Assembly (NCBI GenBank): GCA_002482535.1
Contig: DLGE01000011.1
Location: 2,600 to 66,599, forward strand
Length of the DNA stretch: 64,000 bases
Origin: Peptococcaceae bacterium UBA7702
GTDB lineage: Bacteria > Bacillota > Dehalobacteriia > UBA7702
Direction of reading: 5' to 3'
Made by a program: the position numbers and the translations under genes. Below the pieces are notes generated by a model, which did no database searches, had not been told where the DNA came from, and was given only the letters and a program-made list of their open reading frames with translations. Each line of letters starts with the position of its first letter. Within the stretch, counting starts at the first letter, position 1. This document shows positions 14,604 through 55,012 of the stretch, in pieces.

Positions 14604-16718
14604 TTATTGATCGTCATCCTGATCTTCTTCTTTCAGTTCGAATTTCCCGATCAATTCCTTGAGCATTTGCGACTGCCCGGAAAGCTCTTCACTGGCAGCG
14701 GCACTCTCCTCCGCCGTGGCGCTGTTGGTTTGCACCACACCGGAAATCTGTTCCATGCCGATGTTCACTTGATCCGCGGCTTTCGCCTGTTCTTCACTGG
14801 CGTCGGCAATTTCCTGAACCACTTCGTCGGATCGTTCGGTACCCTCGGCGATTTTCTCTAAGGCTTCCGCCGTTTGCGTCACGATTTTCGAGCCGTTTTC
14901 AATGGCCGCAAGGGAGCTTTCAATTAAGGCAGCGGTATCCTTTGCACTCTCCGCGGATTTACCCGCCAGGTTTCTCACTTCTTCCGCCACAACGGCAAAG
15001 CCTTTCCCCGCCGAACCGGCCCGGGCAGCTTCTACCGCCGCGTTAAGAGCCAAAATATTCGTTTGGAAGGCAATGTCGTCGATGTTTTCGATGATCTTGC
15101 CGATCTTGTTGGAGGCGTTGCTGATTTCGTCCATGGCCTTGATCATCAGATCCATCTGCACCTTGCCTTCGGCGGTGGTCTGTCCGTTCAAAACTGAAAT
15201 TTCCTTCGCCTTCGCCGCATTTTCCGCGTTGGCTTTTATCTGCGCAGTGATCTCACTGAGTGTGGCGGAAAGCTCTTCAATGGCGCCGGCTTGCTCCGCC
15301 GCCCCTTGGGATAGTGACTGGGCTCCTTCCGATACCTGGGACGCCCCTTCAAAGACTTGATCTGCGGACCGATCCATTTCCCCAAAAGTACTGTTCAGTG
15401 AGTTGATGATGTTATTGAGGCTCACTTTGATTTCATTAAAGTCGCCGATGTATTCCCTGGTGACCTCTTGATTGAGATTTCCGTTGGAGATCTTGGTTAA
15501 TACCTCCGAAATTTCACCGATATAACTATTCAAAATTTCCGCGGTATGTTCATTGATCCTGGTAAGCTTGCCCAGTTCATCATTGGTATAGTGGTCTGCT
15601 TTTTCGATGTTCAGATTGCCTTGCCCCATCTGTTCGATGTTGTGTACGATCTTGCCCACCGGCGCCAAAGACTTTTTGAGATTTCTGAAAATGATGAAAG
15701 CAAGGAGAAGGAGACCGACTACGGTAATGGAAACGACGATGATGATCATCGTCTTAACGGATTCAAAGGCTTCGGATTGATCCACGGAGTACTGATAGGA
15801 CCAGGTTTTATCAATCCCATCTACTTTTACAGGCATACTATAGATAATTGCCTTATCCTTGGTTTCCGGATCAATGCCTTCGATTTTGGTTTCCTTGGCA
15901 TTTTTGATGGCCTCCAACCGTTCTGCATCGCCGTCATTGATGACCTCAAATTGTTTCCCCGCGTTATCCGTATTTGTTGTGTCTACAATATAGGTTCCTT
16001 CCTCAGTCAAAAGATACCCGTGAGCCGTTTCATAATCACCCATATTGTAGTCTAACCCCAAAAAGTATTCCGCTACAAAGTCGCAGCAGGAAACACCAAT
16101 CAACGTCCCGTTATCATCAAATATCGGCTTACTTAACGTAATCAAATAAACGGTTTCTCCGTTTGTCAGTTCATATTTATAGGGTTCTGTAATGTTCGGC
16201 TTTTTCGTTTCCGCGGAGATGGCATAATAGTCCGCAACAGAATAATCATCATAATTATTTAACACGTCAATGGCCACGTCGTTTCCATCCCGATATATAT
16301 AGTACGATTGACCATCGGGAGTATCGGGAAAATACATATTCGGTTCAAAGGCATAATAGGCCGAAAAGATTTTCTCATCCAATAAAACATTGTTCAATGA
16401 ATCATGAATCAGCTGCTCCGCCACTTCACGGTCAAAGTTGCTATAACTTCCCACGTTATTCGCTAACGAATTAGAAAAATTGTCCAGCTTATCCAAATTG
16501 CTTGAAACAATTTTAGCGTTATAGGCTGCAAGCTCCTTAATCTCATTCTCTTGCTTTTCCATAAAGGCATTTTCCAAAACCACGCTCAGGGTAACAATCA
16601 CCACCAACATAACAAAAAACAGCGCAACCATTGTTCTGGTCAAGATTTTGTTTGTCAAGCTCTTTGATTTCATGGAGTTTCGCTCAGTTTTTTTCAGTGT
16701 TTTCTTTTTCAATGTCAT
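14604..16718 (-). CDS. methyl-accepting chemotaxis protein (dCache_1 sensor, HAMP, MCP signalling domain), paralog 1 of 5
   Basis: The 704-aa product has an N-terminal TM, a ~300-aa periplasmic double-Cache-like region, a second TM, HAMP, and the conserved MCP signalling domain. The tail ends [13 protein letters not shown]. An AAGGAGAG RBS is present. Confidence 0.85.
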
Positions 16719-16755
16719 ACTCTCCTTATATCGATATTTTACGCATCCTTCTTTA

Positions 16756-16783
16756 ATATCTGCTTTATTCTTTCAAATATTTA
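16756..16783 (-). promoter_or_regulatory. sigma-D/FliA-type promoter candidate for MCP1
   Basis: On the minus strand the sequence reads TAAA, then 16 nt, then GCAGATAT. The B. subtilis sigma-D consensus is TAAA-N15-GCCGATAT. Confidence 0.45.
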
Positions 16784-16920
16784 ACTTTATCGATTTATTT
16801 CAATTAGCATAAAAATACGTCTTGGAAAATCCCCCTTTATTCCATAAGGAAAACCGCCTGCAATAACGCAGACGGCTTCCCATATCGTTGGCTTCAACTT
16901 CCATTTATGATTATGGAGCT

Positions 16921-19029
16921 TTATCGATCAAAATCCTGATCTTCCTCTTTCAGTTCAAATCTTTTGATCAATTCCTTGAGCATTTGCGACTGCCCGGAAA
17001 GTTCTTCGCTGGCGGCGGCGCTTTCTTCCGCCGTGGCGCTGTTGGTTTGTACCACACCGGAAATCTGTTCCATGCCGATGTTCACTTGATCCGCAGCCTT
17101 CGCCTGGTCTTCACTGGCGTCGGCAATTTTCTGAATCACTTCATCGGATCGTTCGGTGCCTTCGGCGATCTTTTCCAAGGCTTTCGCGGTTTCCGTCACG
17201 ATTTTCGAGCCGTTTTCAATGGCAGCTCGAGAGCTTTCAATCAAGGCGGCGGTATCTTTCGCGCTCTCCGCGGATTTACCCGCGAGGTTTCTCACTTCTT
17301 CCGCCACAACGGCAAAGCCTTTCCCCGCCGAACCGGCCCGGGCGGCTTCCACCGCCGCGTTAAGAGCCAGAATATTCGTTTGGAAGGCGATGTCGTCGAT
17401 GTTTTCGATGATCTTGCCGATCTTATTGGAGGCGTTGCTGATTTCGTCCATGGCTTTGATCATCAGATCCATTTGCACCTTGCCCTCGGTAGTGGTCTGT
17501 CCGTTCAGAATCGAAATCTCTTTCGCTTTCCCCGCGTTTTCCGCGTTGGCCTTTATTTGGCTGGTAATCTCACTGATTGTCGCGGAAAGCTCTTCAATGG
17601 CGCCGGCTTGTTCCGCCGCACCCTGGGACAGCGACTGGGCTCCTTCCGATACCTGAGACGCCCCTTCAAAAACTTGGTCCGCGGACATATCCATTTCCGT
17701 AAAAGTATTGTTTAGTGAGTTGATGATGTTATTCAAGCTCACCTTGATTTCATTAAAGTCGCCGATGTATTCCCCGGTAACTTCCTGATTGAGATTTCCA
17801 TTGGAGATCTTGGTCAGTACCTCTGAAATTTCGCCGATGTAGCTATTGAGGATCTCTGCGGTGTTTTCATTGATTTTCGTGAGTTTACCCAGTTCATCAT
17901 CGCTATAGGTATCGGCTTTTTCGATGTTCAGATTGCCCTGGCCCATCTGTTCAATGTTGTGTACAATCTTACTCACCGGGGCCAAAGATTTTTTGAGACT
18001 TCTATAAATAATGAAAGCGAGGAGAAGAAGACCGACTACGGTAATGGCAACGACGATGATGATCATCGTCTTAACGGATTCAAAGGCTTCGGATTTGTCC
18101 ACAGAGAATTGACATGACCAGGTTTGATCAATTCCCTCTACCTGCGCGGGCATATTGTAGAAGATTGCCTTGTCCATGGTTTCTGGATTCGTGGCTTCGA
18201 TTTGAATTTCCTTGGCATTTTTGACGGCGTCAAGTCTTTCTTGGTCACCGTCATTGGCTGCCTCAAATTGTTTCCCCTCATTATCTTTGTTGGAAGTATC
18301 CACAATGTAGATCCCCTTCTGGGTCAAAAGACTTCCTGTGGCCGTTTCATAATCACCCATATTATAATCGAGACCTAAGAAAACTTCCACCAACATGTCA
18401 CAAGTTGTCACGCCGAGAAAATCTCCGTTTTCATCAAGTATCGCGCGGCTGATCGTCACCAAATAAACGATCTCACCGGTTGGCAGTTCATACTCATACG
18501 GCTCCGTGATATATGGTTTCAGGCTTTCTTTTACAAGGGCGTAATAATCCTCCGCGTAATAACTCTCATAATCACTCATCACGTCAATGGCTGTATCGCT
18601 GCCGTCTCTGTATACATAATAGGATAAACCGTCGGGAGTATCGGGGAAATACAGATTCGGCTCAAAGAGATAACATGCTGAAAAGATTTTCTCATCCAGT
18701 AAAACGCTATACAATGAATCGCGAAGCAGTTGATCCGCCGTATCATAGTCAAAATTTTTATAACTCACCACATTGTTGGCCAATGATTGGGCGAAGTTAT
18801 CCATTTTTTCCAAATAGCTCACAATGATTTTGCTGTTATACGCCGCAATCTCTTTGATTTCATTCTCCTGCTTTTCCGTAAAAGCATTTTGCAAAACTAC
18901 GCTCAGGGTAACAATGACAATCAACATGACAAGAAATAACGCCGCCATTGTTCTGGTCAAGATTTTGTTTGTCAAACTTTTTGATTTCATTGAATTTCGC
19001 TCAATCTTTTTTAATGATTTATTTCTCAA
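16921..19029 (-). CDS. methyl-accepting chemotaxis protein, paralog 2 of 5
   Basis: The architecture is the same as MCP1. The start is TTG, with an AAGGAG RBS at 8-nt spacing. Confidence 0.85.
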
Positions 19030-19072
19030 AATTCTCGCTCCTTATAACGTTATTTTATATATCCTTATTTTT

Positions 19073-19100
19073 ATATCCGCATTATTCTTTCAATTATTTA
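19073..19100 (-). promoter_or_regulatory. sigma-D/FliA-type promoter candidate for MCP2
   Basis: On the minus strand the sequence reads TAAA, then 16 nt, then GCGGATAT. Confidence 0.45.
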
Positions 19101-19207
19101 CTCTTATGGACATATTTTAATGCCTTTGAGAAAATCCTGTTCATTTCATAAAGGAAACCACCTGCGTGATGCAGGTGGCTTTCGTTGAAATTTATGATTA
19201 TGGGATT

Positions 19208-21319
19208 TTAACGGTCAGAATCGTGATCTTCTTCTTTTAGTTCAAATCTTTTGATCAATTCCTTGAGCATTTGCGACTGACCGGAAAGTTCTTCACTGGC
19301 CGCGGCGCTTTCCTCCGCCGTGGCGCTGTTGGTCTGCACCACACCGGAAATCTGTTCCATACCGGTGTTCACTTGATCTGCCGCTTTCGCCTGATCTTCA
19401 CTGGCGTCGGCAATTTTCTGAATCACTTCGTCGGATCGTTTGGTACCCTCCGCAATTTTCTCTAAGGCTTTGGCGGTTTCCGTTACGATTTTCGAGCCGT
19501 TTTCAATGGCGGCCCGAGAGCTTTCAATCAAATCAGCGGTGTTCTTGGCGCTCTCCGCGGATTTACCCGCAAGGTTTCTCACTTCTTCCGCCACAACGGC
19601 AAAACCTTTCCCCGCCGAACCGGCCCGGGCCGCTTCCACCGCCGCGTTAAGGGCTAAGATATTCGTTTGGAAGGCGATGTCGTCGATGTTTTCAATAATT
19701 TTGCCAATTTTGTTGGAGGCGTTGCTGATTTCGTCCATGGCCTTGATCATCAGATCCATCTGCACCTTACCTTCGGTGGTGGTCTGTCCGTTCAGAATAG
19801 AAATCTCTTTCGCTTTCCCCGCGTTTTCCGCATTGGCTTTTATCTGCGCAGTAATCTCATTGAGTGTGGCGGAGAGTTCCTCAATGGCGCCGGCTTGTTC
19901 CGCCGCTCCTTGGGACAGTGACTGCGCCCCTTCCGATACCTGGGATGCCCCTTCAAAGACTTGGTCCGCGGACATATCCATTTCCCCAAACGTACTGTTC
20001 AATGAGTTGATGATGTTATTCAGACTTACCTTGATTTCATTAAAGTCGCCGATGTATTCTCTGGTGACCTCCTGATTGAGGTTTCCATTGGCAATTCCCG
20101 TTAGTACCTCTGAAATTTCACCGATATAGCTATTCAGGATTTCCGCGGTATGTTCATTGATTCTGGTGAGTTTACCCAGTTCATCATCGCTATAGGTGTC
20201 GGCTTTTTCGATATTCAGGTTACCTTGACCCATCTGTTCGATGTTGCCCACGATCTTACCCACCGGGGCCAAGGACTTTCTGAGATTTCTGAAAATGATG
20301 AAAGCAAGGAGAAGGAGGCCGACTACGGTAATGGAAACAACAATGATGATCATCGTCCGAACAGATTCATAGGCTTCGGATTCATCCACGGAGAACTGAC
20401 ATGACCAGGTTTGTTCAATCCCATCGACCTTCACGGGCATATTATAGAAAATTGCCTTGTCCATGGTTTGCGGATTCGTGGCTTTCATTTGGGTTTCCGT
20501 AGCGTTTTTGACGGCGTCGAGCCTTCCCGCGTCGCCGTCATTGGCTGCCTCAAATGAGGTCCCGGCATTATCTGGGTTGGCGGTATCCATAAGATAGGTT
20601 CCCTTCTGGGTCAAAAGACAGCCTGTGGATGTTTCATAACCGCCCATATCATAATCGAGGCCTAAAAAAGCATCGGATAAAATATCACAGCTGGCAATAC
20701 CCATAAACTCCCCATCTTCATTGATGACAGGATGACTTAGGGTAATGAGCCAAACCGTTTCACCGGTTGTCAAATCATACTTTGTGGGTTCTGTAATAAA
20801 TGCCCCCAACGTTTCTTTGGGAACGGAATAATAATCGCCGATGGAATAGACTTCCTTATAATTATTGGCAACTTTAATGGCTGTGCTGTCTCCATCTCTG
20901 AATACCCAGTAGGATAAACCGTCGGGGGTATCGGGTAAGTACAGATTCGGCTCAAAGGCATAATAGGCCGAAAAGATGTTTTCATCCACCAAAACGCTTT
21001 CCAATGAATCACGAAGCAGCTGATCCGTCGTATCATAGTCAAAGTTTCTGTAATTGGCCACGTTGTTGGCCAATGACTTGGAAAAGTTGTCCATCTTCTC
21101 CAAATAGCTCACAACGATTTTACTGTTATATGCCGCAATCTCCTTGATTTCATTCTCCTGCTTTTCTGTAAAGGCATTTTGCAAAACCACGCTCAGGGTA
21201 ACAATCACCACTAACATAACAAAAAACAGCGCAACCATTGTTTTGGTCAAGATTTTGTTCGTTAAGCTTTTTGATTTCATTGAGTTTCGCTCAGTCTTGT
21301 TTAGTGATTTCTTTTTCAA
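19208..21319 (-). CDS. methyl-accepting chemotaxis protein, paralog 3 of 5
   Basis: The architecture is the same as MCP1. The start is TTG with an AAGGAG RBS. Confidence 0.85.
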
Positions 21320-21362
21320 AGTTTTTTCTCCTTATAACGTTATTTTATATATTCTTATTTTT

Positions 21363-21390
21363 ATATCTGCTTTATTATTTCGATTATTTA
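21363..21390 (-). promoter_or_regulatory. sigma-D/FliA-type promoter candidate for MCP3
   Basis: On the minus strand the sequence reads TAAA, then 16 nt, then GCAGATAT. Confidence 0.45.
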
Positions 21391-21450
21391 TCTTTATCGA
21401 TTTATTTTCGTCACAAGCCGGCTGCATTACGAAGGAGGTTTCAAAAGGCA

Positions 21451-21673
21451 AAAAAGCCCGCTTAAGCGGACTTTTTAGACTGTAGACAAAATACGCGCAA
21501 GCGGATTTTGGGCTACAGGATGATAGGCTGTCGAGAAAGGCTTAGACGCGGTGAACGCTTTGGCCTGCGGCTGCGCCGCGTACCGAAATGTACTCAAACA
21601 GTCACAGGGTAGAGCGTTCGCCGTGTATCAGACTTTGTCGGCGGCCTGAAAAGCCCGCTTAAGCGGACTTTTC
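21451..21673. mobile_element. copy A of a 172-bp repeated intergenic element. The core runs 21477-21648. It is flanked by two identical copies of a local hairpin, aaaagcccgcttaagcggactttt.
   Basis: The core is about 90% identical to 33304-33475. The flanking 24-nt hairpin is directly duplicated at both ends. The MCP3-MCP4 spacer is 455 bp, versus 178-221 bp for the other inter-MCP spacers. Confidence 0.55.
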
Positions 21674-21774
21674 AGGATAGGATCATAAATTTCAAGAAAG
21701 ACCTTTTCTTTTTAGAGCATTTTGAAGCCACCTACATGATGTAGGTGGCTTCCATTAAAATGCATGAAATTTTA

Positions 21775-23883
21775 TCAATCAAAATCGCGATCTTCTTTTT
21801 TCAATTCGAATTTCCCAATCAATTCCTTGAGCATTTGCGCCTGACCGGAAAGCTCTTCGCTGGCGGCGGCGCTTTCTTCCGCCGTGGCGCTGTTGGTTTG
21901 CACCACACTGGAGATCTGTTCCATGCCGATGTTCACTTGATCCGCCGCCTTCGCCTGATCTTCACTGGCGTCAGCAATTTTCTGAATCACTTCATCAGAT
22001 CGTTCGGTGCCTTCGGCGATCTTTTCCAAGGCTTTCGCGGTTTCCGTTACGATTTTCGAGCCGTTTTCAATGGCGGCCCGGGAACTTTCAATCAACGTCG
22101 CGGTGTTCTTGGCGCTCTCTGCGGATTTACCCGCGAGGTTTCTCACTTCTTCCGCCACAACGGCAAAACCTTTCCCCGCCGAACCGGCCCGGGCGGCCTC
22201 CACCGCCGCGTTAAGGGCTAAGATATTCGTTTGGAAGGCGATGTCGTCGATGTTTTCGATGATTTTGCCGATCTTGTTGGAGGCGTTGCTGATTTCGTCC
22301 ATGGCCTTGATCATCAGATCCATCTGTACCTTGCCTTCGGCGGTGGTCTGCCCGTTCAGGAAAGAGATTTCCTTGGCCTTCGCCGCATTTTCCGCGTTGG
22401 CCTTTATCTGCCCGGTAATCTCACTGATCGTCGCGGAGAGTTCTTCAATGGCGCCGGCTTGTTCCGCCGCGCCCTGGGACAGTGACTGAGCCCCTTCCGA
22501 TACCTGGGTCGCGCCCTCAAAAACTTGGTCTGCGGACATATCCATTTCCGCGAAAATCTCGTTTAACGATTGAATGATGTCGTTGAGACTCATTTTGATC
22601 GCATTGAAATTGCCGATGTATTCCCTGGTAACTGTCTGATTAAGATTTCCATTGGCAATTTCCGTTAGTATCTCTGAAATTTCGCTAATATAGTTGTTTA
22701 GGATTTCCGCGGTATGTTCATTGATTCTGGTGAGCTTGCCCAGCTCGTCGTTGGCATAGTGATCGGCTTTTTCGATATTCAGGTTGCCCTGACCCATCTC
22801 TTCAATGTGATGCACAATCTTGCCCACCGGCGCCAAAGACTTCTTGAGATTTCTGTAAACAATAAAGGAAAGGATCAGCAGGCCCGCTACGGTAATGGCA
22901 ATGACCATAATAATCATCAGCCGGACGGATTGATAGGCTTCGGATTCATCCAAGGAAAACTGAGATGACCAGGTTTTTTCAATCCCCTCTACCTTCACTG
23001 GCATATTGTAGATGATTGCCTTGTTCAAGGTTTCTGGATTCGTACCTTCTATTTTGGTTTCCGTCGTATTTTTGATCGCTTCGAGTCTTTCCGCATCACC
23101 ATCATTGGTTACCTCAAACTGCACACCCTCATGATCCTTATTGGCGGTATCCACAAGGTAGGTCCCTTCCTGAGTCAAAAGACAACCTTGCGCTGTTTCA
23201 TAACCGCCCATATTATACTTTAAGTCTAAAAAGACATCGGCTAAAATGTCACAATTCGCCACCCCCATAAACTCCCCATCTTCGTTGAAGACGGGATTAC
23301 TCAGGGTAACGAGCCAGACCACTTCACCATTGGTCAGTTCATAGTTATATGGTTCTGTAATATGAGCCGCCATTTTTTCCTTTGAAACAGCATAGTATTC
23401 TCCGGTATTATAGACGGCATAATCGTTTAACACGTCAATGGCAACGTCGCTGCCGTCCCTGTATACATAATAGGATAAACCATCGGGGGTATCGGGGAAA
23501 TACAGATTTGGCTCAAAAGCATAGTAGGCCGAAAAGATGTTTTCATCCACCAAAACGCTTTCCAACGAATCGCGAAGCAATTTATCCGCCATTTCACGGT
23601 CAAATCCTCTGTAATTCGCCACGTTATTGGCCAATGATTTGGAGAAGTTGTCCATCTTTGCCAAATAGTTTGCAATCATTTCACTGTTATACACCGCAAG
23701 CTCTCTAATCTCATTTTCTTGCTTTTGCGTAAAAGCGTTTTGTAAAACCACGCTCAGTGCAACAATCACCACCACCATGACAATCAACAGCGGAACCATC
23801 GTCCTGATCAGTATTTTATTTGTCAAGCTCTTTGTTTTTGTTACACTTTGACTGCCTCCGGTTTTTTTAAATGACTTTTTCAC
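21775..23883 (-). CDS. methyl-accepting chemotaxis protein, paralog 4 of 5
   Basis: The architecture is the same as MCP1. This is the most divergent paralog, in both the N-terminal and sensor regions. Confidence 0.85.
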
Positions 23884-23921
23884 TGTAACACCCTCCTAAT
23901 GTTATTTATAACCTATATTTT

Positions 23922-23949
23922 ATATCTGTATAATTTCATTCAATATTTA
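23922..23949 (-). promoter_or_regulatory. sigma-D/FliA-type promoter candidate for MCP4
   Basis: On the minus strand the sequence reads TAAA, then 16 nt, then ACAGATAT. Confidence 0.4.
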
Positions 23950-24104
23950 ATTATTTGTTATTATTTATTTATTTTGCGCTATCCATAGGCTTGAGGAGCG
24001 GTTTTTCGTTTTGCCTTCCCTATTCTATGACGAAGCCGGCCAAAGCTACAAAGAAAGAAGCCACCTATATGATATAGGTGGCTTCAGATTTAATTTACAA
24101 TACC

Positions 24105-26213
24105 TTACCGATCAAAATCGTGATCTTCTTCTTTCAGTTCGAATTTTCCGATTAGTTCTTTGAGCATTTGCGACTGGCCGGAAAGTTCTTCGCTGGCGGC
24201 GGCGCTTTCCTCCGCAGTGGCGCTGTTGGTTTGCACCACACCGGAAATCTGTTCCATGCCGATGTTCACTTGATCCGCCGCTTTCGCCTGTTCTTCACTG
24301 GCGTCGGCAATTTCCTGAACCACCAGGTTGGATCTTTCGGTACCCTCGGCGATTTTTTCCAAGGCTTTCGCCGTTTCCGTGACGATTTTCGAACCGTTTT
24401 CAATGGCGGCCCGAGAGCTTTCAATCAAAGCAGCGGTGTTCTTGGCGCTCTCCGCGGATTTACCCGCGAGGTTTCTCACTTCTTCCGCGACAACGGCAAA
24501 TCCTTTCCCTGCCGAACCGGCCCGGGCGGCTTCTACCGCCGCGTTAAGAGCTAAAATATTCGTTTGGAAAGCGATGTCGTCGATATTTTCAATGATCTTG
24601 CCGATCTTGTTGGAGGCGTTGCTGATTTCGTCCATGGCCTTGATCATCAGATCCATCTGCACCTTGCCTTCGGCGGTGGTCTGCCCGTTCAGGAAAGAGA
24701 TTTCCTTGGCCTTCGCCGCATTTTCCGCGTTGGCTTTTATTTGGCTGGTAATCTCACTGATCGTAGCGGAGAGCTCTTCAATGGCGCCGGCTTGTTCCGC
24801 CGCACCCTGGGACAGCGACTGGGCTCCTTCCGATACCTGAGACGCCCCTTCAAAGACTTGGTCCGCGGACATATCCATTTCGGCGAAGACACTGTTTAAC
24901 GATTTGATGATGTTATTCAAGCTTACCTTGATTTCATTAAAGTCACCAATGTATTCTCTGGTAACCTCCTGATTGAGATTTCCGTTGGAGATCTTTGTCA
25001 GCACCTCCGAAATTTCGCTGATGTAGCTATTGAGGATCTCTGCGGTGTTTTCATTGATTTTCGTGAGTTTACCCAACTCGTCGTTGGTATAGTGATCGGC
25101 TTTTTCGATGTTCAGGTTGCCGTGACCCATCTGTTCGATGTTGTGTACGATCTTGCCCACCGGGGCCAAGGACTTTCTGAGATTTCTGAAAATGATGAAA
25201 GCAAGGAGGAGGAGACCAACTACGGTGATGGAAACGACAATGATGATCATCGTCCGAACAGATTCATAAGCTTCGGATTCATCCAAGGAGAACTGATAGG
25301 ACCAGGTTTTCTCAATCCCTTCTACCTGCACGGGCATATTGTAGATGATTGCCTTATTCAAAGTTTCCGGATTCGTGCCATCGATTTGGGTTTCCGTGGT
25401 ATTTTTGATGGCGTCGAGTCTTTCCGCGTCCCCTTTATTGGTGGCCTCAAATGCTGTCCCGGCGTTATCGGCATTGGCGGAATCCACAAGGTAGGTGCCT
25501 TCCTGGGTTAAAAGACAGCCTTCAGACGTTTCATAACCGCCCATATCATAATCGAGGCCTAAGAAAACCTCGGCTAAAATATCGCAGTTTGTCACGCCGA
25601 TAAAATCTCCGTCGGCATTAAATATTGGCTGGCTCATGGAAACCAAGTAAACCGTTTCACCGTTTGTCAGCTCATACTCATATGGTTCCGTAATATGACC
25701 CGCCAACTTCTCCTGGGAAACCGTATAGTATTCTCCAGTGGAATAGACATCATAATTGTTTAACACATCAATGGCCTGGTCATCCCCGTCTCTGTATACA
25801 TAGTAGGATATACCTTCGGGAGTATCGGGGAAATACATATTCGGCTCAAAGGCATAATAGGCCGAAAAGATGTTTTCATCCACCAAAACGCTTTCCAACG
25901 AATCGCGAAGCAGTTGATCCGCCGTATCATAGTCAAAATTTCTGTAATTCGCCACGTTGTTCGCCAACGATTTGGAGAAGTTATCCATCTTCTCCAAATA
26001 GCTCACAACGATTTTGCTGTTATACGCCGCAATCTCTTTGATTTCATTCTCTTGTTTTTCCGTAAAGGCGTTTTGCAAAACCACGCTCAGGGTAACAATC
26101 ACCACCAACATGACAAAAAACAGCGCCACCATTGTTTTGATCAAGATTTTGTTGGTTAAGCTCTTTGTTTTCAGGCCATTTGGCTCCGTGCTTTTTAAAA
26201 ATTTTTTCTTCAT
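24105..26213 (-). CDS. methyl-accepting chemotaxis protein, paralog 5 of 5
   Basis: The architecture is the same as MCP1. Confidence 0.85.
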
Positions 26214-26259
26214 ATCTCATCTCTCCTCGCAAAGTAATTTAGTAATTCCTTTTTTCTTT

Positions 26260-26287
26260 ATATCTGTTATATTCTCCCGATTATTTA
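26260..26287 (-). promoter_or_regulatory. sigma-D/FliA-type promoter candidate for MCP5
   Basis: On the minus strand the sequence reads TAAA, then 16 nt, then ACAGATAT. Confidence 0.4.
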
Positions 26288-26419
26288 TCATTACGGTTTA
26301 TTTTTATAAAAGAATCAGCCGCCGTTATGGAGGCATAACAGTGTGTCGGTAAAGTGTCTTTTTTCGCTCTTTCGGGTACAGGGCAAACTCCTAATATCAC
26401 CACCACAGTCCCCTTCTTT

Positions 26420-26465
26420 TACGAAAAAAGGTCCAGCCATCATCATCGACTTTGGCTGGACTTTT
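26420..26465 (-). terminator. rho-independent terminator downstream of the sortase/adhesin operon
   Basis: A ggtccagccaaagtcgatgatgatggctggacc hairpin is followed by a T-run on the minus strand. Confidence 0.6.
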
Positions 26466-26543
26466 CCTTGGGTTATGATTTAATTTAAGGGATTTTGTCA
26501 CTGCTTGACTTATTTATATTTATTCATTCTTTATTCTTTGTTT

Positions 26544-27203
26544 TTATTTTTCAGTCAAATCACAGCGGATGATCAGCCGCTGGGTCGCCACGCGTATCGG
26601 CGTACAGGTGATTAGCGTCATTTCATAGGCGTCGTTGCTGTTTAATACCCACACGTCTTCCGGGTCAACCACAAAGATATCGCTGACCGTATAAGTGAAG
26701 GTGTCGCCGCCATATTGGGCGATCACTTCGTCCCCTTTCGCCATCTCACCGAGACGGTTGAAGAACTCACCCCAAGCGTAACTGCGGTGGCCGGTGATAC
26801 AACAGTTACCGGCTTCTCCGGGCAGCGCCGTGCCCTTGAAATGACCTACCGCATATTTAAGGGTTTTCTTATCAACGCCTTCGCCGATGGCGACACGTAC
26901 GTCGATGGCGGGGATGGATAAAACACCCACCACCTCAATGGAACCCTTGCCGACTTGGAGCAGATCGTCGGGATTTGGCAGCATCGTCATCTTCTCGCCT
27001 TTTCCCGTAACCTCCGCGGCACGTCCGGTTTCGTACTGGCGGATCAACGCGTTTTGTTGATCATTCGTATACCATTTGACACCGGCCACAGCAAGGATCA
27101 GCAAGAGGCCGGCGCTGATCAAAATGAGGGAAAGGACGCGGACAATGCGGCGGGATGGCTTTTCCCTTTCTTTCTTAGCCGGAAGCTGCTTTTCCTTTGC
27201 CAT
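26544..27203 (-). CDS. sortase family transpeptidase
   Basis: The product has an N-terminal TM anchor, a catalytic TLITCTP (TLxTC) motif and a conserved downstream Arg. The gene overlaps or abuts the adhesin gene. Confidence 0.8.
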   Translation of the reverse strand: MAKEKQLPAKKEREKPSRRIVRVLSLILISAGLLLILAVAGVKWYTNDQQNALIRQYETGRAAEVTGKGEKMTMLPNPDDLLQVGKGSIEVVGVLSIPAIDVRVAIGEGVDKKTLKYAVGHFKGTALPGEAGNCCITGHRSYAWGEFFNRLGEMAKGDEVIAQYGGDTFTYTVSDIFVVDPEDVWVLNSNDAYEMTLITCTPIRVATQRLIIRCDLTEK

Positions 27204-27204
27204 G

Positions 27205-30200
27205 TCAGCTGTTTTTAGCCCCCCGTTTGCGATTGAGCAAACCGATGGTAGCGCCGCTGAGGATCAGGAAGATCCCGGCTAAAACCAGCATTTTGCCATC
27301 CCAAAACATGCCGGATTGAGGCAGCTTCTTTTTGGCCGTATTTTCCACGGTGTAAGTATACGTTTTTGCCAGTTCTGTGGTAACGCTGATCGTTGCCGTA
27401 CTGGCAATGTAACCGTCGGGTGCTTTTGTTTCGGTAATCGTATAGGCGCCGGGCATCACATCGTGAAAAGTCGCTAAACCGTTGCTGCCAGTCGTGGCGG
27501 TGGCGACAATGGTGCCGCCTGTATTGAACAGCGTAAATACAGCGCCGGAAAGGGCTTGCTTGGTGGAAGCGTCCACTTTCTTGATTTGGATCGTCGCGCC
27601 GATACGCTTATTTACCACCGTATAGGGGGAAGCTTTGACCACCGTATCCACATCCTTCGCGGTTAAGGTTATGGGAATCACTGCCGTGGAAAGGGTATAC
27701 CCTGCCGGGGCGCTGATTTCCTTGATGGTATAGGTGCCGATAAGGACGTCGGCAAAGGTGACTTTACCGTCGGCGGCAGAGGTCGCCTGAGATATGAGCT
27801 TGTTATTGCCATCATAAAGCCCGAATACCGCGCCGGCCAAAGCAGCGCCGGTATCGTCGGTTTTCTTCAGCTCAACGGTGGCGATCTGGGTGGCCGGATC
27901 GATTTCGTTCACGAAAGGACCGTCGGGTGTCAATACCAGATCCATGCCGGTATTTTCTTCGTTATAGGAAATGACCGCGGTCAGTTCCGTTTGACTCAAA
28001 AGATAATCTTTGGGCGCCACAGTTTCCCGGATCGTATACGTTCCCACACCCACGTCGACAAAGCGTACGAGGCCATCGATGCCAGAGGTAGCACTTTGCA
28101 ACAGTGCGTTTTCGCTGTTATAAAGTCCGAAGGTCGCCCCCTGCAAGGGGTTTACACCATTGGTTTTGGTGAATTCGATATCAATGGGAGCAATGGGTGC
28201 GTCCACAATCGCTCCCTCAGGAGAAATGTCAACGATACACGCGGTTTTATCCTCGTTATAGGTAATACCGATGGTAATTTCCGCATCGTAGATCAGATAT
28301 CCAATGGGCGATGATGTTTCCAGCGCCGTGTAGCTGCCGGCGGGAATTTCCGTAAAACGCACCACGCCGAATTCATCGGAAGTTGCGGTAGCCACCTCTT
28401 CGCTGTCTTGATCGTAAAGGGTGAAGACCGCGCCAGCCAAGGCATTGACGCCGTCGGTTTTGTTAAATTCCACGGTGGCCGTGGGCAACGGGCGGTTTTC
28501 GATGCTGTCATTTTCCGAGGTAATCGTGACAACGGTTGCGGTTTTATCTTCATTGTAGGTCACCGTGGCGGTGATGGTCTCACTGGATTCTACATAACCG
28601 TCGGGGGCTATGGTTTCTGCAACACTGTAAGTGCCAAGAGGCAGATCAGAAAAGGTCACGACGCCGTCCACCGCCGCAGCGGTGCGGCTGACGTCTTCAT
28701 TGTTATAATCGGTGCCGGTGAGGGTAAAGGTGCCGCCAGAAAGCGTCGCATCATCAGTGGCTGTTTTATCAAAGCTCAAGGTACCTAAAGCATCTTCGTC
28801 GGAGGTTGTGTAAAGAGCGTTTTCATTCAGACGGTCGCCGCCGATGTAGTCCGTATTGAGCAAATAACCGTCGGGGGTTCCTACTTCCACCACATAAAAG
28901 ACCCAGGAGGGCAAATTGCTGAAAACAGCATTGCCGCTGGCATTGGTGGTGGCTTCCACATATTTTCCGCCTTTGAGAATAGGATCCTTATTGAAGTTCA
29001 AGAGACGGTAAATGGCGCCTTCCACGGGATCCCCCGAACCATTCACCTTGTTGACCGTCAACTTCATGCTGCCGCTGCCTCCGGAAGACCACAGGTTGTT
29101 GATCTCAATCCGGGAGGCTTCCGCGGTACCGGAAGGGCTGCTGCTGGTGCCGGTAAGGGAAATCTTATTTACCGTATTCAAATCGTCGGCAATGATAAAG
29201 GTCGTAAATTCCAAACGGTAGGCGGCTTTGCTGTCAGGCAGCGTCACGGTGAGGGTATTGTTATTGGCCGCCGTCGGTAAGGTAACGGCATAACCGGAAG
29301 TCACCAAAGTTCCCTCCGCCGCGGCTTGCACGGAACCGTCGCTGTTGACAGCGACCCGATAGAGCTTGACGCTGTCTTCGTCCACCATCAGAGCGGGATC
29401 AAGAACGTCGCTGACGGAAGCGTTGGTCAACTGAATCTGGCCGGGATTGATCACGGCGGACCAGTCGATATGGTCAGAGCCGGTTTGGTATTGATATGTT
29501 TTGGTAACCACGGGGTTTTTGATTTTGGCGGTGGCCGTGACGTTGATCGGTGTGCCGATTTCATCCCCGTCAATGGAAGCTTTGTTGATGAAGTCCCTTT
29601 CGCCGGACCATTGCTGTTTCAGCGTCTCATCGGTTAACCGCGTATAGAAGGTGATGGTATATTGGTTGTCGATGGCCGATGAAAATTTATATTCAAAGGA
29701 CGTATCACCGTTGACACCGGTGGTGGGGGCTGTGGCCAGGGGCGTTGTTGCACCGCTTTCCAACACGGTAAAGGGATGCTCACTGTCAATCAAAAGCACC
29801 ATGCCCGGAGGAAGCGTATCGGTAACGACAGCGTTGGTCAAGGGGAGTTTATTGCGGTTGACCACGATCTGCCATTGCGCCGTATGGGTCGCGTAATCAT
29901 AGCTCCCCACCAAGGATTTGGCAATCATTTGACTGTTGTAGGTCTTTGTGCCGTCCACGGGAAGGTCTGTTTGACCGTCACGCCTTAAGACGACTTTATT
30001 GCCGAATCCCACTGAGTTATTGTTTACGTAAAGCGAGGAAAAATCAACGATTTTCGTAGAATACGTTACGGTATAGGCAGTGCTAATACTGCCAAAGGCA
30101 TAGGAAAAATCACGCACAAAACTGTCGGTAGAGGTGAATGCCGCTGTAGCCGTTGGCGTAGTCGTCGAAAATACAGTCGTGGAACCCTGTTTCACGGTAA

Positions 30201-31851
30201 AGGGATGGTCGGCGTCAATCAGGAGTTGCTGATTGGCGGGAATCGTATCCTTGATGGAGGCATTCGTCATAGAAATGGCGTTACGGTTTACGGTGGTGGT
30301 CCAAGTGATATAGCCGGGAGGAGCAAAATTCGTGGTAGAACCGGCGGATTTGGCTAAGAGACCGCCGCTGCCCACGCCGGTGGCGGTAGCTGTGTCTCCC
30401 GGCGGATTGCTGCTGTCGCTCATTTCCGTCCAGCTTAATTTCGCCCTGTTGGTAAAGTTTACCGTACCGTTGTTGTTGAGCATCGCGTCGCGGTTGGTAA
30501 CCTTCGTATAATAGGTCAGCGTGGCGTTGCCGCTTAAAGCGGCGGGAAAACGGTATTCCAGGGTACTTGCGGTCGCTACATCGGTGTAAGTATAGGTGTA
30601 GGTGCCGGCTGTAGTCCCTGAGTTAACGGTGGTCGCCGCGGTGGCGCCGATCTTGACCTGCACGGGATAAGTCGCATTGTTCAGCAATTCCAATCCCGCG
30701 GGGAGGGTATCGGTAATTTTGACGCCGGTGATCGATTCATCCCCGGGCACCGTTGCATTCACCGTCCATTTCAACACCATGGTTCCGTCACTGGTGGTCT
30801 CTTGGGTACCGGATTTACCGATCCAGTCCGTCTTGACAGTAGCCAGAGCGGGCTCCGTTACGGCTTCGCTCCCCCAGAAAATGGTGGCGGTGTTGGTAAA
30901 GGAGGAAGATTCCGTTGCGGTACTGGCTCCTGTTTCCGCTTTAAACGTCGTCGGCGTCGTTTTATAGGTAATGACTTGTTCGCCGGTGGTGCCGGCGGGG
31001 AAGGTGTAAGAAACCTGGTTGGCGGTGGTCAGATCAAGGCTGCCATCGGGAATATTGGTCGTTCCGACATAGAAAGAGCCGGCTTTATAGGTCTGATTGG
31101 AACTGTACACGTCCACGAGGTTATATTCACCCAAATCGACACCGCTGGGAGGCGTCGCCGTTACGGTCCAGGTGATATCGTTGGTGGAGGCATTGTATAC
31201 GCCGCTCTTTGCCAATTCGATTTCGGGAAGGGGCGGCACTTCACGATTAATGATCACGGTTTCCGTACCGAAGGTCACTTGAGTGGAAGTATTGTCGTCA
31301 GGACCGAGCTCCTTAAAGGTACCGTTCACACCGACTTTTCCCCACATATTGCTATGGTTGGCCACATCGGCGTTGAAGTTGACGCGGATCGTATTGCTGT
31401 CGGTAAATTGCCAGGTACCCAAAACCCAGGAGCCGGTTTCCGTATCTTCGGCAGTAATATCATGGGTTTCCCCTATCACATAGGCAAAGTCAATGCCGTT
31501 GGGAAGGGTAACGGTAAAATAGTTACTGCCGGAATACGAATAGAATTCTCCCTCTCCGTCACCGTCTTCCAAGTGGAACACATATTCCAGGCTGATGGTG
31601 GCATCGGCGGGAACATCGTTATACGTATTGCTCACCGGTAAGATCGCATTGCCATCGGCGTCTTTTACCGATAGGGATGACGGTCCGCCGGTTTCGGCGT
31701 AACTGCCGGTGGTGTTATGAATCGCCAGGTAATCGCTTTGATTGGTAAGATTGTCCGGCGTATCCGCAAAGATGGATACGATGGGTAGCGACAGCAAAGC
31801 AAAACATACGACCAACAATAATTTTATAAGACGATTCTTTTTCTTTTTCAT
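27205..31851 (-). CDS. 1548-aa cell-wall-anchored surface adhesin or pilin-like protein with six C-terminal CnaB/SpaA-type (prealbumin-fold) domains and an LPQSG sorting signal
   Basis: The signal peptide is MKKKKNRLIKLLLVVCFALLSLPIVSIFA. The N-terminal ~950 aa is a Thr/Ser-rich beta-rich region. Six repeats of about 95 aa each contain G(T/A)YT(I/L)xE(T/I)xAPxGY. The C-terminus is LPQSG, a hydrophobic stretch, then NRKRGAKNS. Confidence 0.8.
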   Translation of the reverse strand: MKKKKNRLIKLLLVVCFALLSLPIVSIFADTPDNLTNQSDYLAIHNTTGSYAETGGPSSLSVKDADGNAILPVSNTYNDVPADATISLEYVFHLEDGDGEGEFYSYSGSNYFTVTLPNGIDFAYVIGETHDITAEDTETGSWVLGTWQFTDSNTIRVNFNADVANHSNMWGKVGVNGTFKELGPDDNTSTQVTFGTETVIINREVPPLPEIELAKSGVYNASTNDITWTVTATPPSGVDLGEYNLVDVYSSNQTYKAGSFYVGTTNIPDGSLDLTTANQVSYTFPAGTTGEQVITYKTTPTTFKAETGASTATESSSFTNTATIFWGSEAVTEPALATVKTDWIGKSGTQETTSDGTMVLKWTVNATVPGDESITGVKITDTLPAGLELLNNATYPVQVKIGATAATTVNSGTTAGTYTYTYTDVATASTLEYRFPAALSGNATLTYYTKVTNRDAMLNNNGTVNFTNRAKLSWTEMSDSSNPPGDTATATGVGSGGLLAKSAGSTTNFAPPGYITWTTTVNRNAISMTNASIKDTIPANQQLLIDADHPFTVKQGSTTVFSTTTPTATAAFTSTDSFVRDFSYAFGSISTAYTVTYSTKIVDFSSLYVNNNSVGFGNKVVLRRDGQTDLPVDGTKTYNSQMIAKSLVGSYDYATHTAQWQIVVNRNKLPLTNAVVTDTLPPGMVLLIDSEHPFTVLESGATTPLATAPTTGVNGDTSFEYKFSSAIDNQYTITFYTRLTDETLKQQWSGERDFINKASIDGDEIGTPINVTATAKIKNPVVTKTYQYQTGSDHIDWSAVINPGQIQLTNASVSDVLDPALMVDEDSVKLYRVAVNSDGSVQAAAEGTLVTSGYAVTLPTAANNNTLTVTLPDSKAAYRLEFTTFIIADDLNTVNKISLTGTSSSPSGTAEASRIEINNLWSSGGSGSMKLTVNKVNGSGDPVEGAIYRLLNFNKDPILKGGKYVEATTNASGNAVFSNLPSWVFYVVEVGTPDGYLLNTDYIGGDRLNENALYTTSDEDALGTLSFDKTATDDATLSGGTFTLTGTDYNNEDVSRTAAAVDGVVTFSDLPLGTYSVAETIAPDGYVESSETITATVTYNEDKTATVVTITSENDSIENRPLPTATVEFNKTDGVNALAGAVFTLYDQDSEEVATATSDEFGVVRFTEIPAGSYTALETSSPIGYLIYDAEITIGITYNEDKTACIVDISPEGAIVDAPIAPIDIEFTKTNGVNPLQGATFGLYNSENALLQSATSGIDGLVRFVDVGVGTYTIRETVAPKDYLLSQTELTAVISYNEENTGMDLVLTPDGPFVNEIDPATQIATVELKKTDDTGAALAGAVFGLYDGNNKLISQATSAADGKVTFADVLIGTYTIKEISAPAGYTLSTAVIPITLTAKDVDTVVKASPYTVVNKRIGATIQIKKVDASTKQALSGAVFTLFNTGGTIVATATTGSNGLATFHDVMPGAYTITETKAPDGYIASTATISVTTELAKTYTYTVENTAKKKLPQSGMFWDGKMLVLAGIFLILSGATIGLLNRKRGAKNS

Positions 31852-33274: not shown

Positions 33275-33504
33275 AAGGGGCTGTCTTTTTAAGACAGCCC
33301 CTCAGACTGTAGACAAAATACGCGCAAGCGGATTTTGGGCTACAGGATGACAGGCTGTCGAGAAAGGCTTAGACGCGGTGAACACTTTGGCCTGCGGCTG
33401 CGCCGTGTACATAGAGGTACATAAGCTGTCGTGGGCCAAAGGGTTCGCCGTGTATCAGACTTTGTCGACGGCCTGAGGGGCTGTCTTATTAAGACAGCCC
33501 CTTA
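33275..33504. mobile_element. copy B of the 172-bp repeated intergenic element. The core runs 33304-33475. It is flanked by duplicated copies of a different local hairpin, ggggctgtct(t/a)ttaagacagcccc.
   Basis: The core is about 90% identical to copy A and the same length. The flanking hairpin differs from copy A's but is again duplicated on both sides. Confidence 0.55.
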
Positions 33505-51441: not shown

Positions 51442-51671
51442 AAAAACCTCCTATTTCAAAAAAATAGTGTTTTTTTCTATTCTACTATAGATTCGTGATG
51501 CAACATCTTTTCCCTTTTTCTTTCCTCATCAAACAAAAACTTCCCCTAAAATTAAAAAAATAGCATTTTCTTCTATTCTTACCTATTTAAAATAAATATT
51601 CTAAATATTTTTCTTTTCTCTTCCTATTTATTGTGTTAAAATTGAAAGAAAAAAGAGGGATTTTCGTTATG

Positions 51672-52940
51672 GAAACGAGTCAGATTTTTGCCATTGCCGT
51701 ATTCGTACTGGTTATGGCAGTCATCATCAGCGAAAAAGTCCACCGGGCAGCGGTAGCCCTGGCCGGTGGTATCATCCTGATTGTCTCCGGCGTCATTAGC
51801 TTTGATCAGGGGATTGAAGCCATCGATTTCGCTACCATGGGCGTGCTTTTGGGTATGATGCTCTTTGTCGCCGTGGTAAAGGAATCGGGACTTTTTGAGT
51901 ACATGGCCATCAAGGCGGCAAAAATTGCCAAAGGCGACCCCTGGCGCATCATGGTGGCGTTCATGATTGTCACCGCGGTCTTTTCAGCCTTTCTTGACAA
52001 TGTGACCACTGTTTTATTGGTGGGTCCCATGACCATCACCATCTGCCGAATGATCAAAACCAACCCGGTCCCATTTCTGCTCACGGAAATTCTCGCCTCC
52101 AATATAGGCGGCACCGCAACCTTAATCGGCGATCCGCCGAATATCATGATCGGCACCGCCGCGCATTTATCCTTCATTGACTTCATTCTTTACGACACAC
52201 CCGTCATTATCGTTGTCATGGTGGCCATGGTGATCTTCTTCCGTTTCGTTTACAAAAACAAGCTTTCCGCCTCCGCCGATGCCCAAAGTGAAGTGCTCAG
52301 TCTTGATGAAAATAAGTTCATTAAGGATGCAAAGCTCTTTAAAAAGAGCGTGATTATGATCATTCTCGTGGTGGCCGCTTTTATCTGCCACAGTTTTCTT
52401 GGCGTCGAATCCTGTGAAGTGGCTCTGGCCGCCGGGATTATCATGGTTATCATCGGCAGGACCAACGTAGAAGAAGCCATTCACAATGTAGAATGGCCGA
52501 CTCTGCTCTTCTTTATCGGTCTTTTTGTCGTCGTCGGCGCTTTGGACAAAACGGGTGTGATCGGCATGATGGCCAACGGCATCATCCAGGTTACCGGCGG
52601 CAATGTGATCTTGACCATGCTGGTCATCCTCTGGGTTTCCGCCCTGCTTTCGGCAATTTTAGATAATATTCCCTTTGTCGCCACGATGATTCCCTTGATT
52701 TTAACCATGGAAGCCAACGGCATTGATGCCGCTCCCCTTTGGTGGGCCCTTTCTCTCGGCGCCTGTCTCGGCGGTAACGGGACTTTGATTGGCGCTTCCG
52801 CCAATGTTGTACTTTCCGGGATCAGCAGCAAACACGGTTATCCCATTACTTTCATCAGCTTTCTTAAAATTGGTATGCCCATGATGCTGATTTCCGTGGT
52901 TATTGCCACCGCTTATCTATTGCTGCGTTTTGCCCTTTGA
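51672..52940 (+). CDS. ArsB/NhaD-superfamily permease, paralog A
   Basis: The product has about 11-12 TM helices. I chose the start METSQIF, which has an AGAGGGA RBS. Confidence 0.7.
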   Translation, partial: ETSQIFAIAVFVLVMAVIISEKVHRAAVALAGGIILIVSGVISFDQGIEAIDFATMGVLLGMMLFVAVVKESGLFEYMAIKAAKIAKGDPWRIMVAFMIVTAVFSAFLDNVTTVLLVGPMTITICRMIKTNPVPFLLTEILASNIGGTATLIGDPPNIMIGTAAHLSFIDFILYDTPVIIVVMVAMVIFFRFVYKNKLSASADAQSEVLSLDENKFIKDAKLFKKSVIMIILVVAAFICHSFLGVESCEVALAAGIIMVIIGRTNVEEAIHNVEWPTLLFFIGLFVVVGALDKTGVIGMMANGIIQVTGGNVILTMLVILWVSALLSAILDNIPFVATMIPLILTMEANGIDAAPLWWALSLGACLGGNGTLIGASANVVLSGISSKHGYPITFISFLKIGMPMMLISVVIATAYLLLRFAL

Positions 52941-53068
52941 CAAAAACAAACTACATGTATCCTACATGCATCTAAAGGATCATATCGCTGATATCTGTTT
53001 CACATATTGATTTTATAACTCCAAAATGGTAAAATGAAAAGAATAATGAAAAAAAATGGAGTAATATG

Positions 53069-54843: not shown

Positions 54844-54940
54844 CTTTTACAATCTTTATAACAAGGTAGACTTTTTGCCAGGGCGGCAGGGCGGCAGGGC
54901 GGCGAGAAACCGTATCCCGCAAGGCACAGGCAAAAAGCAG

Positions 54941-55012
54941 GTTCGCCGCGTATCAGCCTTTGTCGGCAGCCTGAGGGTGTGTCCCAAATTTGGGGCACAC
55001 CCTCTCTTTTTT
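54941..55012 (+). repeat. partial third copy of the repeated element's 3' end, followed by a terminator hairpin
   Basis: The string gttcgccgcgtatcagcctttgtcggcagcctg matches the last ~33 nt of the copy A and copy B cores. It is followed by gggtgtgtcccaaatttggggcacaccc and a T-run. Confidence 0.45.

Follow-up and report, generated by a model that had tools for sequence, protein, structure and literature searches.

A probable 173-bp MITE-type element between duplicated terminator hairpins in uncultured anaerobic Clostridia

Terminators and extragenic palindromes are used as "safe" landing sites by class C group II introns and by insertion sequences of the IS1397/ISKpn1 type. Unlike the element reported here, these are not known to duplicate the hairpin, and group II introns are reverse transcriptase-bearing ribozymes. 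The precedent for structure-directed insertion into terminators is provided by IS1272 and TnSha1 of the IS1182 family, which insert into terminator hairpins in either orientation and without a primary-sequence consensus; many of their target inverted repeats are experimentally confirmed terminators (PMC4923244). Both remove the target stem-loop and leave no duplication (PMC4923244, PMC5678879), and the target inverted-repeat structures of IS1272-type elements span 21 to 85 bp (PMC5678879). In the cruciform model drawn by Wan et al. for IS1272, the observed outcome is pathway a, and a hypothetical pathway b duplicates the whole stem-loop (PMC5678879). Siguier et al. 2015 is cited in both papers for the targeting of palindromes by other IS1182 members (PMC4923244, PMC5678879). 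Like IS1272/ISSau3 and TnSha1, the present element has hairpins as targets, with no sequence specificity, and their length of 21 to 31 bp falls at the low end of the 21- to 85-bp range. It differs in size and content, being 173 bp and non-coding where IS1272 and TnSha1 are 1.9 to 3 kb with a transposase, and in outcome, since those elements delete the hairpin whereas it was duplicated here, as in pathway b. The preliminary description of this DNA had known of no described family with these properties. The element family itself does appear to be undescribed, but its structure-directed insertion into terminators has the above precedent; the novelty is the duplication instead of deletion, in a MITE, that follows the terminator targeting known from IS1272-like elements.

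Classical MITEs produce target-site duplications (TSDs) that are typically 2 to 9 bp and of fixed length. Those of bacteria are intergenic, multicopy and mobilised in trans (background in PMC3049150). The element resembles the MITEs RUP, Correia and Nezha in being short, non-coding, highly base-paired and intergenic, with a TSD. Unlike that of classical MITEs, its TSD is co-extensive with the secondary structure of the target, and the terminal inverted repeats (TIRs) of MITEs are usually clearer. In CRISPR spacer and casposon integration, Cas1 acts at the two borders of a palindromic repeat, which is thereby duplicated over a length fixed by a ruler. The palindrome-insert-palindrome architecture is shared with the element, whose targets, unlike the leader or specific site used there, are many unrelated hairpins and whose duplication length is defined by structure. 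The IS1202 subgroup of DDE elements is characterised by fixed direct repeats of 27 to 28 bp, which are not described as palindromic or terminator-linked, and by ends that begin TGT or T(a/g)T (bioRxiv 10.1101/2022.12.17.520857). A very long target duplication of similar size is common to this subgroup and the element. A fixed long stagger of the IS1202 type was nevertheless dropped as an explanation, as the TSD of 21 to 31 bp tracks the palindrome. The termini, CAGAC.../...GGCCTN, also differ from those of the subgroup.

The window, the whole 64-kb stretch of DNA that was analysed, contains two full copies of the element, A and B, with their target hairpins:

21452 to 21475, no strand: left target hairpin of copy A, 24 nt, AAAAGCCCGCTTAAGCGGACTTTT, an exact repeat of 21649 to 21672
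21476 to 21648, + strand: element copy A, 173 bp, composed of a junction T (21476) and the 172-nt core (21477 to 21648)
21649 to 21672, no strand: right target hairpin of copy A, AAAAGCCCGCTTAAGCGGACTTTT, identical to the left copy
33276 to 33302, no strand: left target hairpin of copy B, 27 nt, AGGGGCTGTCTT[T/A]TTAAGACAGCCCCT, 12 nt past the TrxB stop codon
33303 to 33475, + strand: element copy B, composed of a junction C (33303) and the 172-nt core (33304 to 33475)
33476 to 33502, no strand: right target hairpin of copy B, AGGGGCTGTCTT[T/A]TTAAGACAGCCCCT, one loop mismatch against the left copy

The preliminary description had noted that the MCP3-MCP4 spacer is about 230 bp longer than its counterparts, that it holds a 172-bp core recurring at 33304 to 33475 with about 90% identity, that an identical 24-nt hairpin stands on both sides of copy A, and that copy B has a different hairpin, again duplicated. 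These statements were borne out by measurement. The spacer (21320 to 21774) was 455 nt in length compared to 178, 202 and 221 nt for the other inter-MCP spacers, and 197 nt of this excess of 234 to 277 nt correspond to the element plus one hairpin copy. The cores of A and B differed at 19 of 172 positions (89% identity), nt 1 to 47 being identical. For the hairpin pair of copy A, 0 exact matches were expected by chance, and the pair of copy B was duplicated apart from its loop mismatch. The hairpin of copy A was absent from all other inter-MCP spacers of the window; these paralogous spacers had been considered as an empty site for copy A and were dropped for that reason. When the flanking MCP proteins were clustered at 90% identity, the clusters contained only the window's own MAG and one 50-aa fragment and gave no empty site for copy A. 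The surrounding block (14604 to 31851), with five tandem MCP paralogues of 81 to 85% nucleotide identity, a sortase and a 1548-aa SpaA/collagen-binding adhesin, sits between DUF421/tRNA genes and TrxB. In a related 2.65-Mb genome (L026), DUF421 is followed directly by TrxB, and the block was therefore deduced to be a variable island.

Further copies were obtained from a scan of 185,579 species genomes in which both element ends were required 120 to 150 nt apart. Nine loci were found, eight in the MAG Clostridiales bacterium AnMBR.bin542 (GCA_040776805.1; hereafter bin542) and one in a Peptococcaceae MAG. A profile search with nhmmer revealed a second copy in one of the bin542 loci (L009) and a decayed remnant in the window, and a JGI metagenome scan with the 5' 20-mer of the element gave one true copy, on contig L020. 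A count of copies had been suggested in the preliminary description; it gave 13 full copies (two in the window, nine in bin542, one in the Peptococcaceae MAG and one on the JGI metagenome contig), 12 of which lay between direct duplicates of a GC-rich hairpin, the hairpin being different at each locus. All 13 were at unrelated loci with unrelated flanks. The repeated unit stopped at exactly the same bases in every copy, and the copies were 85 to 100% identical to each other, with identical cores inside bin542 subfamilies (L002 = L004; L005 = L006 = L009a). In L009 (2141 to 2734), two copies, each with its own hairpin pair, were located within 600 bp around a tRNA-Lys(ctt) gene (2454 to 2529).

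The sole copy that lacked the duplication was the full-length one in L020 (360 to 600), which had two different hairpins on its two sides; copies may have recombined with each other here, or the short-read contig may be chimeric. The other five metagenome loci were assigned to three chance matches in coding sequence (L016 and L019, which overlap, and L021) and one hairpin-adjacent match (L017/L018). In the latter (L017, 885 to 904; L018, 4141 to 4160), a hairpin followed by C and AGACTGTAGACAAAAG, equal to the left-end junction of the element, ran directly into an unrelated terminator hairpin. A related family may have left a solo end or footprint here, or the match may be due to chance. In scans of viral contigs the 5' end gave four chance matches in coding sequence and the 3' end gave none, and blastn of the element against plasmid and phage collections returned nothing.

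At every locus the spacing of the two hairpin copies equalled 173 plus the TSD length, from which a constant insert of 173 bp was deduced for all 12 loci. The TSD lengths were 24, 27, 28, 27, 24, 28, 31, 26, 21, 30, 25 and 26-27 bp, and in each case the TSD was the whole palindrome, its two boundaries being displaced from the stem ends by the same distance in opposite directions and thus symmetric about the dyad. Each TSD folded as a complete hairpin (−8 to −23 kcal/mol), and the 12 target hairpins had a common shape but no common sequence. The suggestion in the preliminary description that a mobile element lands in terminator hairpins agrees with these 12 duplications and with the single-hairpin empty sites described below. 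Its estimate of a TSD of about 25 to 30 bp was correct as to a duplicated hairpin but not as to a set length, which ranged from 21 to 31 bp and was co-extensive with each palindrome. The junction base was T in copy A and C in the 12 other copies. Five differences were found in all between paired hairpin copies, each in or beside the loop; three of the five fell within the loop itself, whose nucleotides account for 16% of the duplication (P = 0.03). Some of these differences occurred at insertions whose cores match other copies exactly.

Empty sites had been proposed as a check, and orthologous positions in related genomes were indeed found to carry a single hairpin and no element. For copy B, the site was located in related assemblies through orthologues of the upstream TrxB gene. 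The spacer between TrxB and YutH was 332 nt in the window and 96 to 164 nt in L022/L023, L024/L025, L026, L036 and L037, in all of which it contained one hairpin and no element. The single hairpin of bin542 (L036) had the same 10-bp stem, GGGGCTGTC.../...GACAGCCCC, as the copy B duplication. For the bin542 insertion L004, which is downstream of an EF-G-like gene, the site was empty in L039, L038 and L041, and the hairpin at the empty L039 site agreed with that of L004 in both stem and loop. L038 encodes a protein identical to one from a Clostridiales bacterium MAG, which is probably the assembly of the window. Since copy B is missing from bin542 and L004 is missing from L038, the two related genomes show reciprocal occupancy, provided that L038 is indeed the window's assembly. 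Together with the identical cores inside the bin542 subfamilies, this reciprocal occupancy shows recent mobility.

Two orthologous terminators were observed in which the stems were kept and the loops were reverse-complemented, one in L038 (3515 to 3740) versus L039 (2615 to 2870) and L004 (ttcc versus gaaa) and the other in L036 (3919 to 4082) versus the window at 33276 to 33302 (ccaaaaa versus tttttaa). A flipping of the hairpin by the insertion was considered from these two comparisons and was dropped because the empty site in L039 carries the loop of the filled site. The loop flips were thus concluded to be a polymorphism independent of the element.

The element is probably a 173-bp non-autonomous DNA transposon of the MITE type that was recently active in a small group of uncultured anaerobic Clostridia and inserts at the foot of a cruciform. 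Four features by which a MITE is recognised were found, namely a non-coding sequence of 173 bp, dispersed copies with the same boundaries, a locus-specific TSD, and presence or absence with intact empty sites. A transposase encoded elsewhere would presumably move it in trans. This enzyme would choose its targets by shape rather than by sequence, that is, GC-rich palindromes, mostly intrinsic terminators, and the target palindrome would probably be extruded as a cruciform. Strand transfer at the 5' feet of the cruciform, at two sites symmetric about the dyad, would leave each flank with a single-stranded copy of the entire palindrome, and gap repair would then yield a complete hairpin on both sides, of 21 to 31 bp depending on the palindrome. 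From the geometry of the product we infer strand transfer at this position. The duplication length follows the palindrome and its range spans a full turn of the helix. This cannot be the product of a transposase that cuts B-form DNA with a fixed stagger. Two attacks at the base of a cruciform, where the two sites are brought side by side at the four-way junction, can duplicate the whole palindrome. The five differences between paired hairpins are not predicted by simple gap filling and count against the model.

The anatomy of the element was examined in the alignment of the 13 copies, and the following features are given for copy A:

21477 to 21491, + strand: terminal motif AGACTGTAGACAAAA, left-end copy of AGRCYGYMGASAAA, a putative transposase-binding or cleavage site
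21480 to 21518, + strand: 5' hairpin of the element, 39 nt (alignment columns 4 to 42), invariant in 13 of 13 copies; helix 1 has 14 pairs, none of which varies
21524 to 21648, + strand: long imperfect hairpin, 125 nt (columns 48 to 172), with variation mostly at the apex and three compensatory pairs
21525 to 21539, + strand: internal direct copy of the end motif, AGGCTGTCGAGAAAG, at position 49
21634 to 21648, − strand: right-end inverted copy of the end motif, reverse complement CAGGCCGCCGACAAA

The motif AGRCYGYMGASAAA is therefore present three times per element, twice in one orientation (at the left tip and at position 49) and once in the inverted orientation, at the right tip. The ends read CAGACTGTAGAC... 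on the left and ...GTCGACGGCCT on the right (end strings CAGACTGTAGACAAAA and TTTGTCGACGGCCT), the element starting with CAGAC and ending with ...GGCCT(A/G/C). The TIR is weak. When anchored at both tips, AGACTGTAGACAAA and AGGCCGTCGACAAA match at 11 of 15 positions, and by local alignment the repeat was no better than shuffles (p = 0.12). Conserved ends, a variable apex and a motif in triplicate are the pattern that would be expected of ends bound by a transposase.

The leading candidate for the enzyme is a DDE transposase of the IS1182 family, which would carry PF05598/PF13751 domains. For comparison, IS1182-family ends were read from plasmids (ISKpn6, ISClbu1 at two sites, ISSau3/IS1272, two enterococcal members and one from Methylobacterium). 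Their TIRs (GGGGCTGTATCAAA, GAGGCTGGGACATAAA, GGGGCTGTCGCA, GGAGCCTGTCCGAG and GGAGTCTGCGCGG) share RGRSCTG 4 to 5 nt from the tip, and several of the ends fold into a terminal hairpin. The AGACTG/AGGCTG/AGGCCG of the element at the same distance from the tip, together with its 5' hairpin, resembles these ends; the similarity is suggestive but not significant pairwise against shuffles (p = 0.2 to 0.9). The plasmid copies of the IS1182 family that were examined had no duplicated hairpins, no transposase of the family was tied to the host genomes, and homologues of the ISClbu1 transposase were from close Clostridium relatives only. ISClbu1 itself resides on C. butyricum megaplasmids (L028, 1374 to 3211; L029, 301 to 2137) and in L028 starts on the DegV stop codon. 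Both of its ends are hairpins formed from the inverted repeat GGGGCTGTATCAAA, the right one resembling an intrinsic terminator.

The window, the fetched loci (about 250 kb) and the viral, plasmid and phage collections yielded neither a transposase nor any longer element bearing these ends, and the JGI metagenome scan for the 5' end gave no longer element. None of ten sampled window ORFs was a transposase. An autonomous insertion sequence with hairpin duplications would be marked by further palindromic direct repeats, but none were present in all of the fetched DNA at distances of up to 6 kb, and all-against-all blastn gave no other repeats shared among the loci. The genome scan needed both ends within 150 nt, and a full-length insertion sequence in bin542 would escape it.

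The core, which the preliminary description had suggested be folded, was very stable, with −91 kcal/mol for the + strand (z = −8.0) and −66 kcal/mol for the − strand. Over all copies the values were −82 to −99 kcal/mol versus −65 to −85 kcal/mol, and the + strand was better by 11 to 29 kcal/mol in each. This strand bias hints at a single-stranded or RNA stage that is not needed by the transposon model. As to the structured sRNA that the preliminary description had named as an alternative, the fold is real and favours one strand, and the core may have a role as RNA. In place of a passive IS1182-type MITE, an undescribed mobile system, with either a new structure-specific integrase acting on cruciforms or a read-through transcript of the element that helps its mobilisation, was considered and is given a small chance. 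If such a reading were true, the terminator rebuilt behind the element would secure both its own expression and a harmless insertion.

The same fold is one argument for regarding the unit as primarily an RNA gene or 3'-UTR module with its own structure, spread by way of RNA, whether by read-through, reverse transcription and integration at terminators or by RNA guidance (bridge/seek RNAs and omega RNAs as in IS110 and IS605), a reading that was judged to be unlikely. It would be consistent with the more stable + strand in every copy, with the finding that 98.4% of structure cells are paired over ten distinct sequences, three pairs having compensatory changes, and with the orientation of 10 of 12 insertions along the T-tract, which would allow transcription from the upstream gene to stop at the downstream hairpin. 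The covariation is, however, thin because the copies are 85 to 100% identical, the excess of G-U over A-C is modest (3 to 6 versus about 2), and a long inverted repeat in DNA yields the same fold. Two copies (copy A and L006) are in the opposite orientation, and no reverse transcriptase or recombinase was located nearby. The core matched no Rfam family, including group II introns, retrons and IS-associated RNAs, so that the housekeeping RNA raised in the preliminary description as a contrary finding was not encountered. At gathering thresholds, Rfam 15 gave only tRNAs over the window, and a permissive scan of 21430 to 21700 gave sub-threshold matches, mostly on the flanking terminator hairpins, with none at gathering score. 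Furthermore, known RNA-guided insertion or retro-insertion gives no symmetric duplication of an entire target palindrome.

That same duplication theoretically could be the work of a Cas1-type integrase, either casposase-like or in off-target CRISPR adaptation, that attacks both borders of the palindrome. The product geometry is that of CRISPR spacer or casposon integration and 21 to 31 bp is a repeat-like size, but a ruler would give a fixed length, and here the length follows the palindrome over a 10-bp range. The insert was the same 173 bp each time rather than variable spacers, and no cas1 gene was present among the sampled window ORFs or near any copy. This route was deemed very improbable. 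The long imperfect hairpin, with its strand-biased stability, recalls REP doublets and IS200/IS605 ends, and a REPIN-like single-strand element moved by an HUH transposase (RAYT or IS200-IS605 type) that recognises this hairpin would fit with there being no transposase inside or beside the element. The "peel and paste" insertion of IS200/IS605 is not known to duplicate its target and requires a short conserved sequence there. The element duplicates the whole hairpin, its targets have no sequence in common, and its copy number is low compared to typical REPINs, so that this reading was regarded as very improbable. A conserved intergenic sequence that is not mobile, copied by recombination or segmental duplication and with its hairpin pairs created by tandem duplication on the spot, would accommodate the unmatched hairpins of L020 and the chimeras to which MAG and metagenome assemblies are prone at repeats, but has a near-negligible probability given 13 of 13 copies at unrelated loci with unrelated flanks, unit boundaries that are identical to the base each time, and the contradictory one-hairpin orthologous empty sites and reciprocal occupancy.

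For the MITE-type transposon, the preferred reading, the effect on transcription was deduced from the position of the T-tract. The element was co-oriented with the T-tract of the terminator in 10 of 12 insertions, the two opposite ones being copy A and L006. Directly after the upstream hairpin copy comes (T)TCAGACTG; the original T-rich tail remains with the downstream copy in 10 of 12 insertions, and only the downstream copy has a T-tract. In copy B, the left hairpin has lost the T-tract and has no terminator score, and the right one still carries the original T-tract and is scored as a terminator. For copy A, whose orientation is opposite to that of its target, the same terminator logic applies on the − strand, where its left hairpin reads as an intrinsic terminator with a T-tract (−8.3 kcal/mol). 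With an upstream hairpin that lacks the T-tract and a downstream hairpin that has it, transcription from the upstream gene should cross the element and stop behind it. The folded + strand would thereby join the 3' UTR of the upstream gene and the locus would stay terminated.

A hairpin restored on both sides would offer a mobile element a route to near-neutrality, and a systematic 3'-UTR extension is predicted for the genes upstream of the element. The 12 independent insertions with their empty sites form a natural data set for an outcome previously drawn only as a hypothetical branch. They make the geometry of structure-directed target capture testable, mark out the enzymes to be sought in these genomes, and provide a short substrate with which insertion into a terminator that leaves termination intact could be studied or engineered. 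Annotation pipelines could mistake such elements for sRNA genes or paired terminators. Short-read assemblies are also broken by them. To either side of copy B, Logan short-read contigs of the window organism (L010, 3940 to 3983; L011, 1 to 30) break off within the element, from which it was concluded that the repeat fragments assemblies.

The decayed relative in the window and its adjoining hairpin were assigned as follows:

54905 to 54973, + strand: decayed, 5'-truncated relative of the element, of which only the 3' end, GGTTCGCCGCGTATCAGCCTTTGTCGGCAGCCTG, is recognisable (nhmmer E = 3.8e-6, profile positions 138 to 171)
54974 to 55003, + strand: single terminator hairpin adjoining the remnant

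No second copy of this hairpin was present anywhere in the window. Two tandem paralogous genes for CitMHS-type transporters, with 77% nucleotide identity, occupy 51633 to 54340, and three tandem GGCAGGGC units were observed upstream of the remnant.
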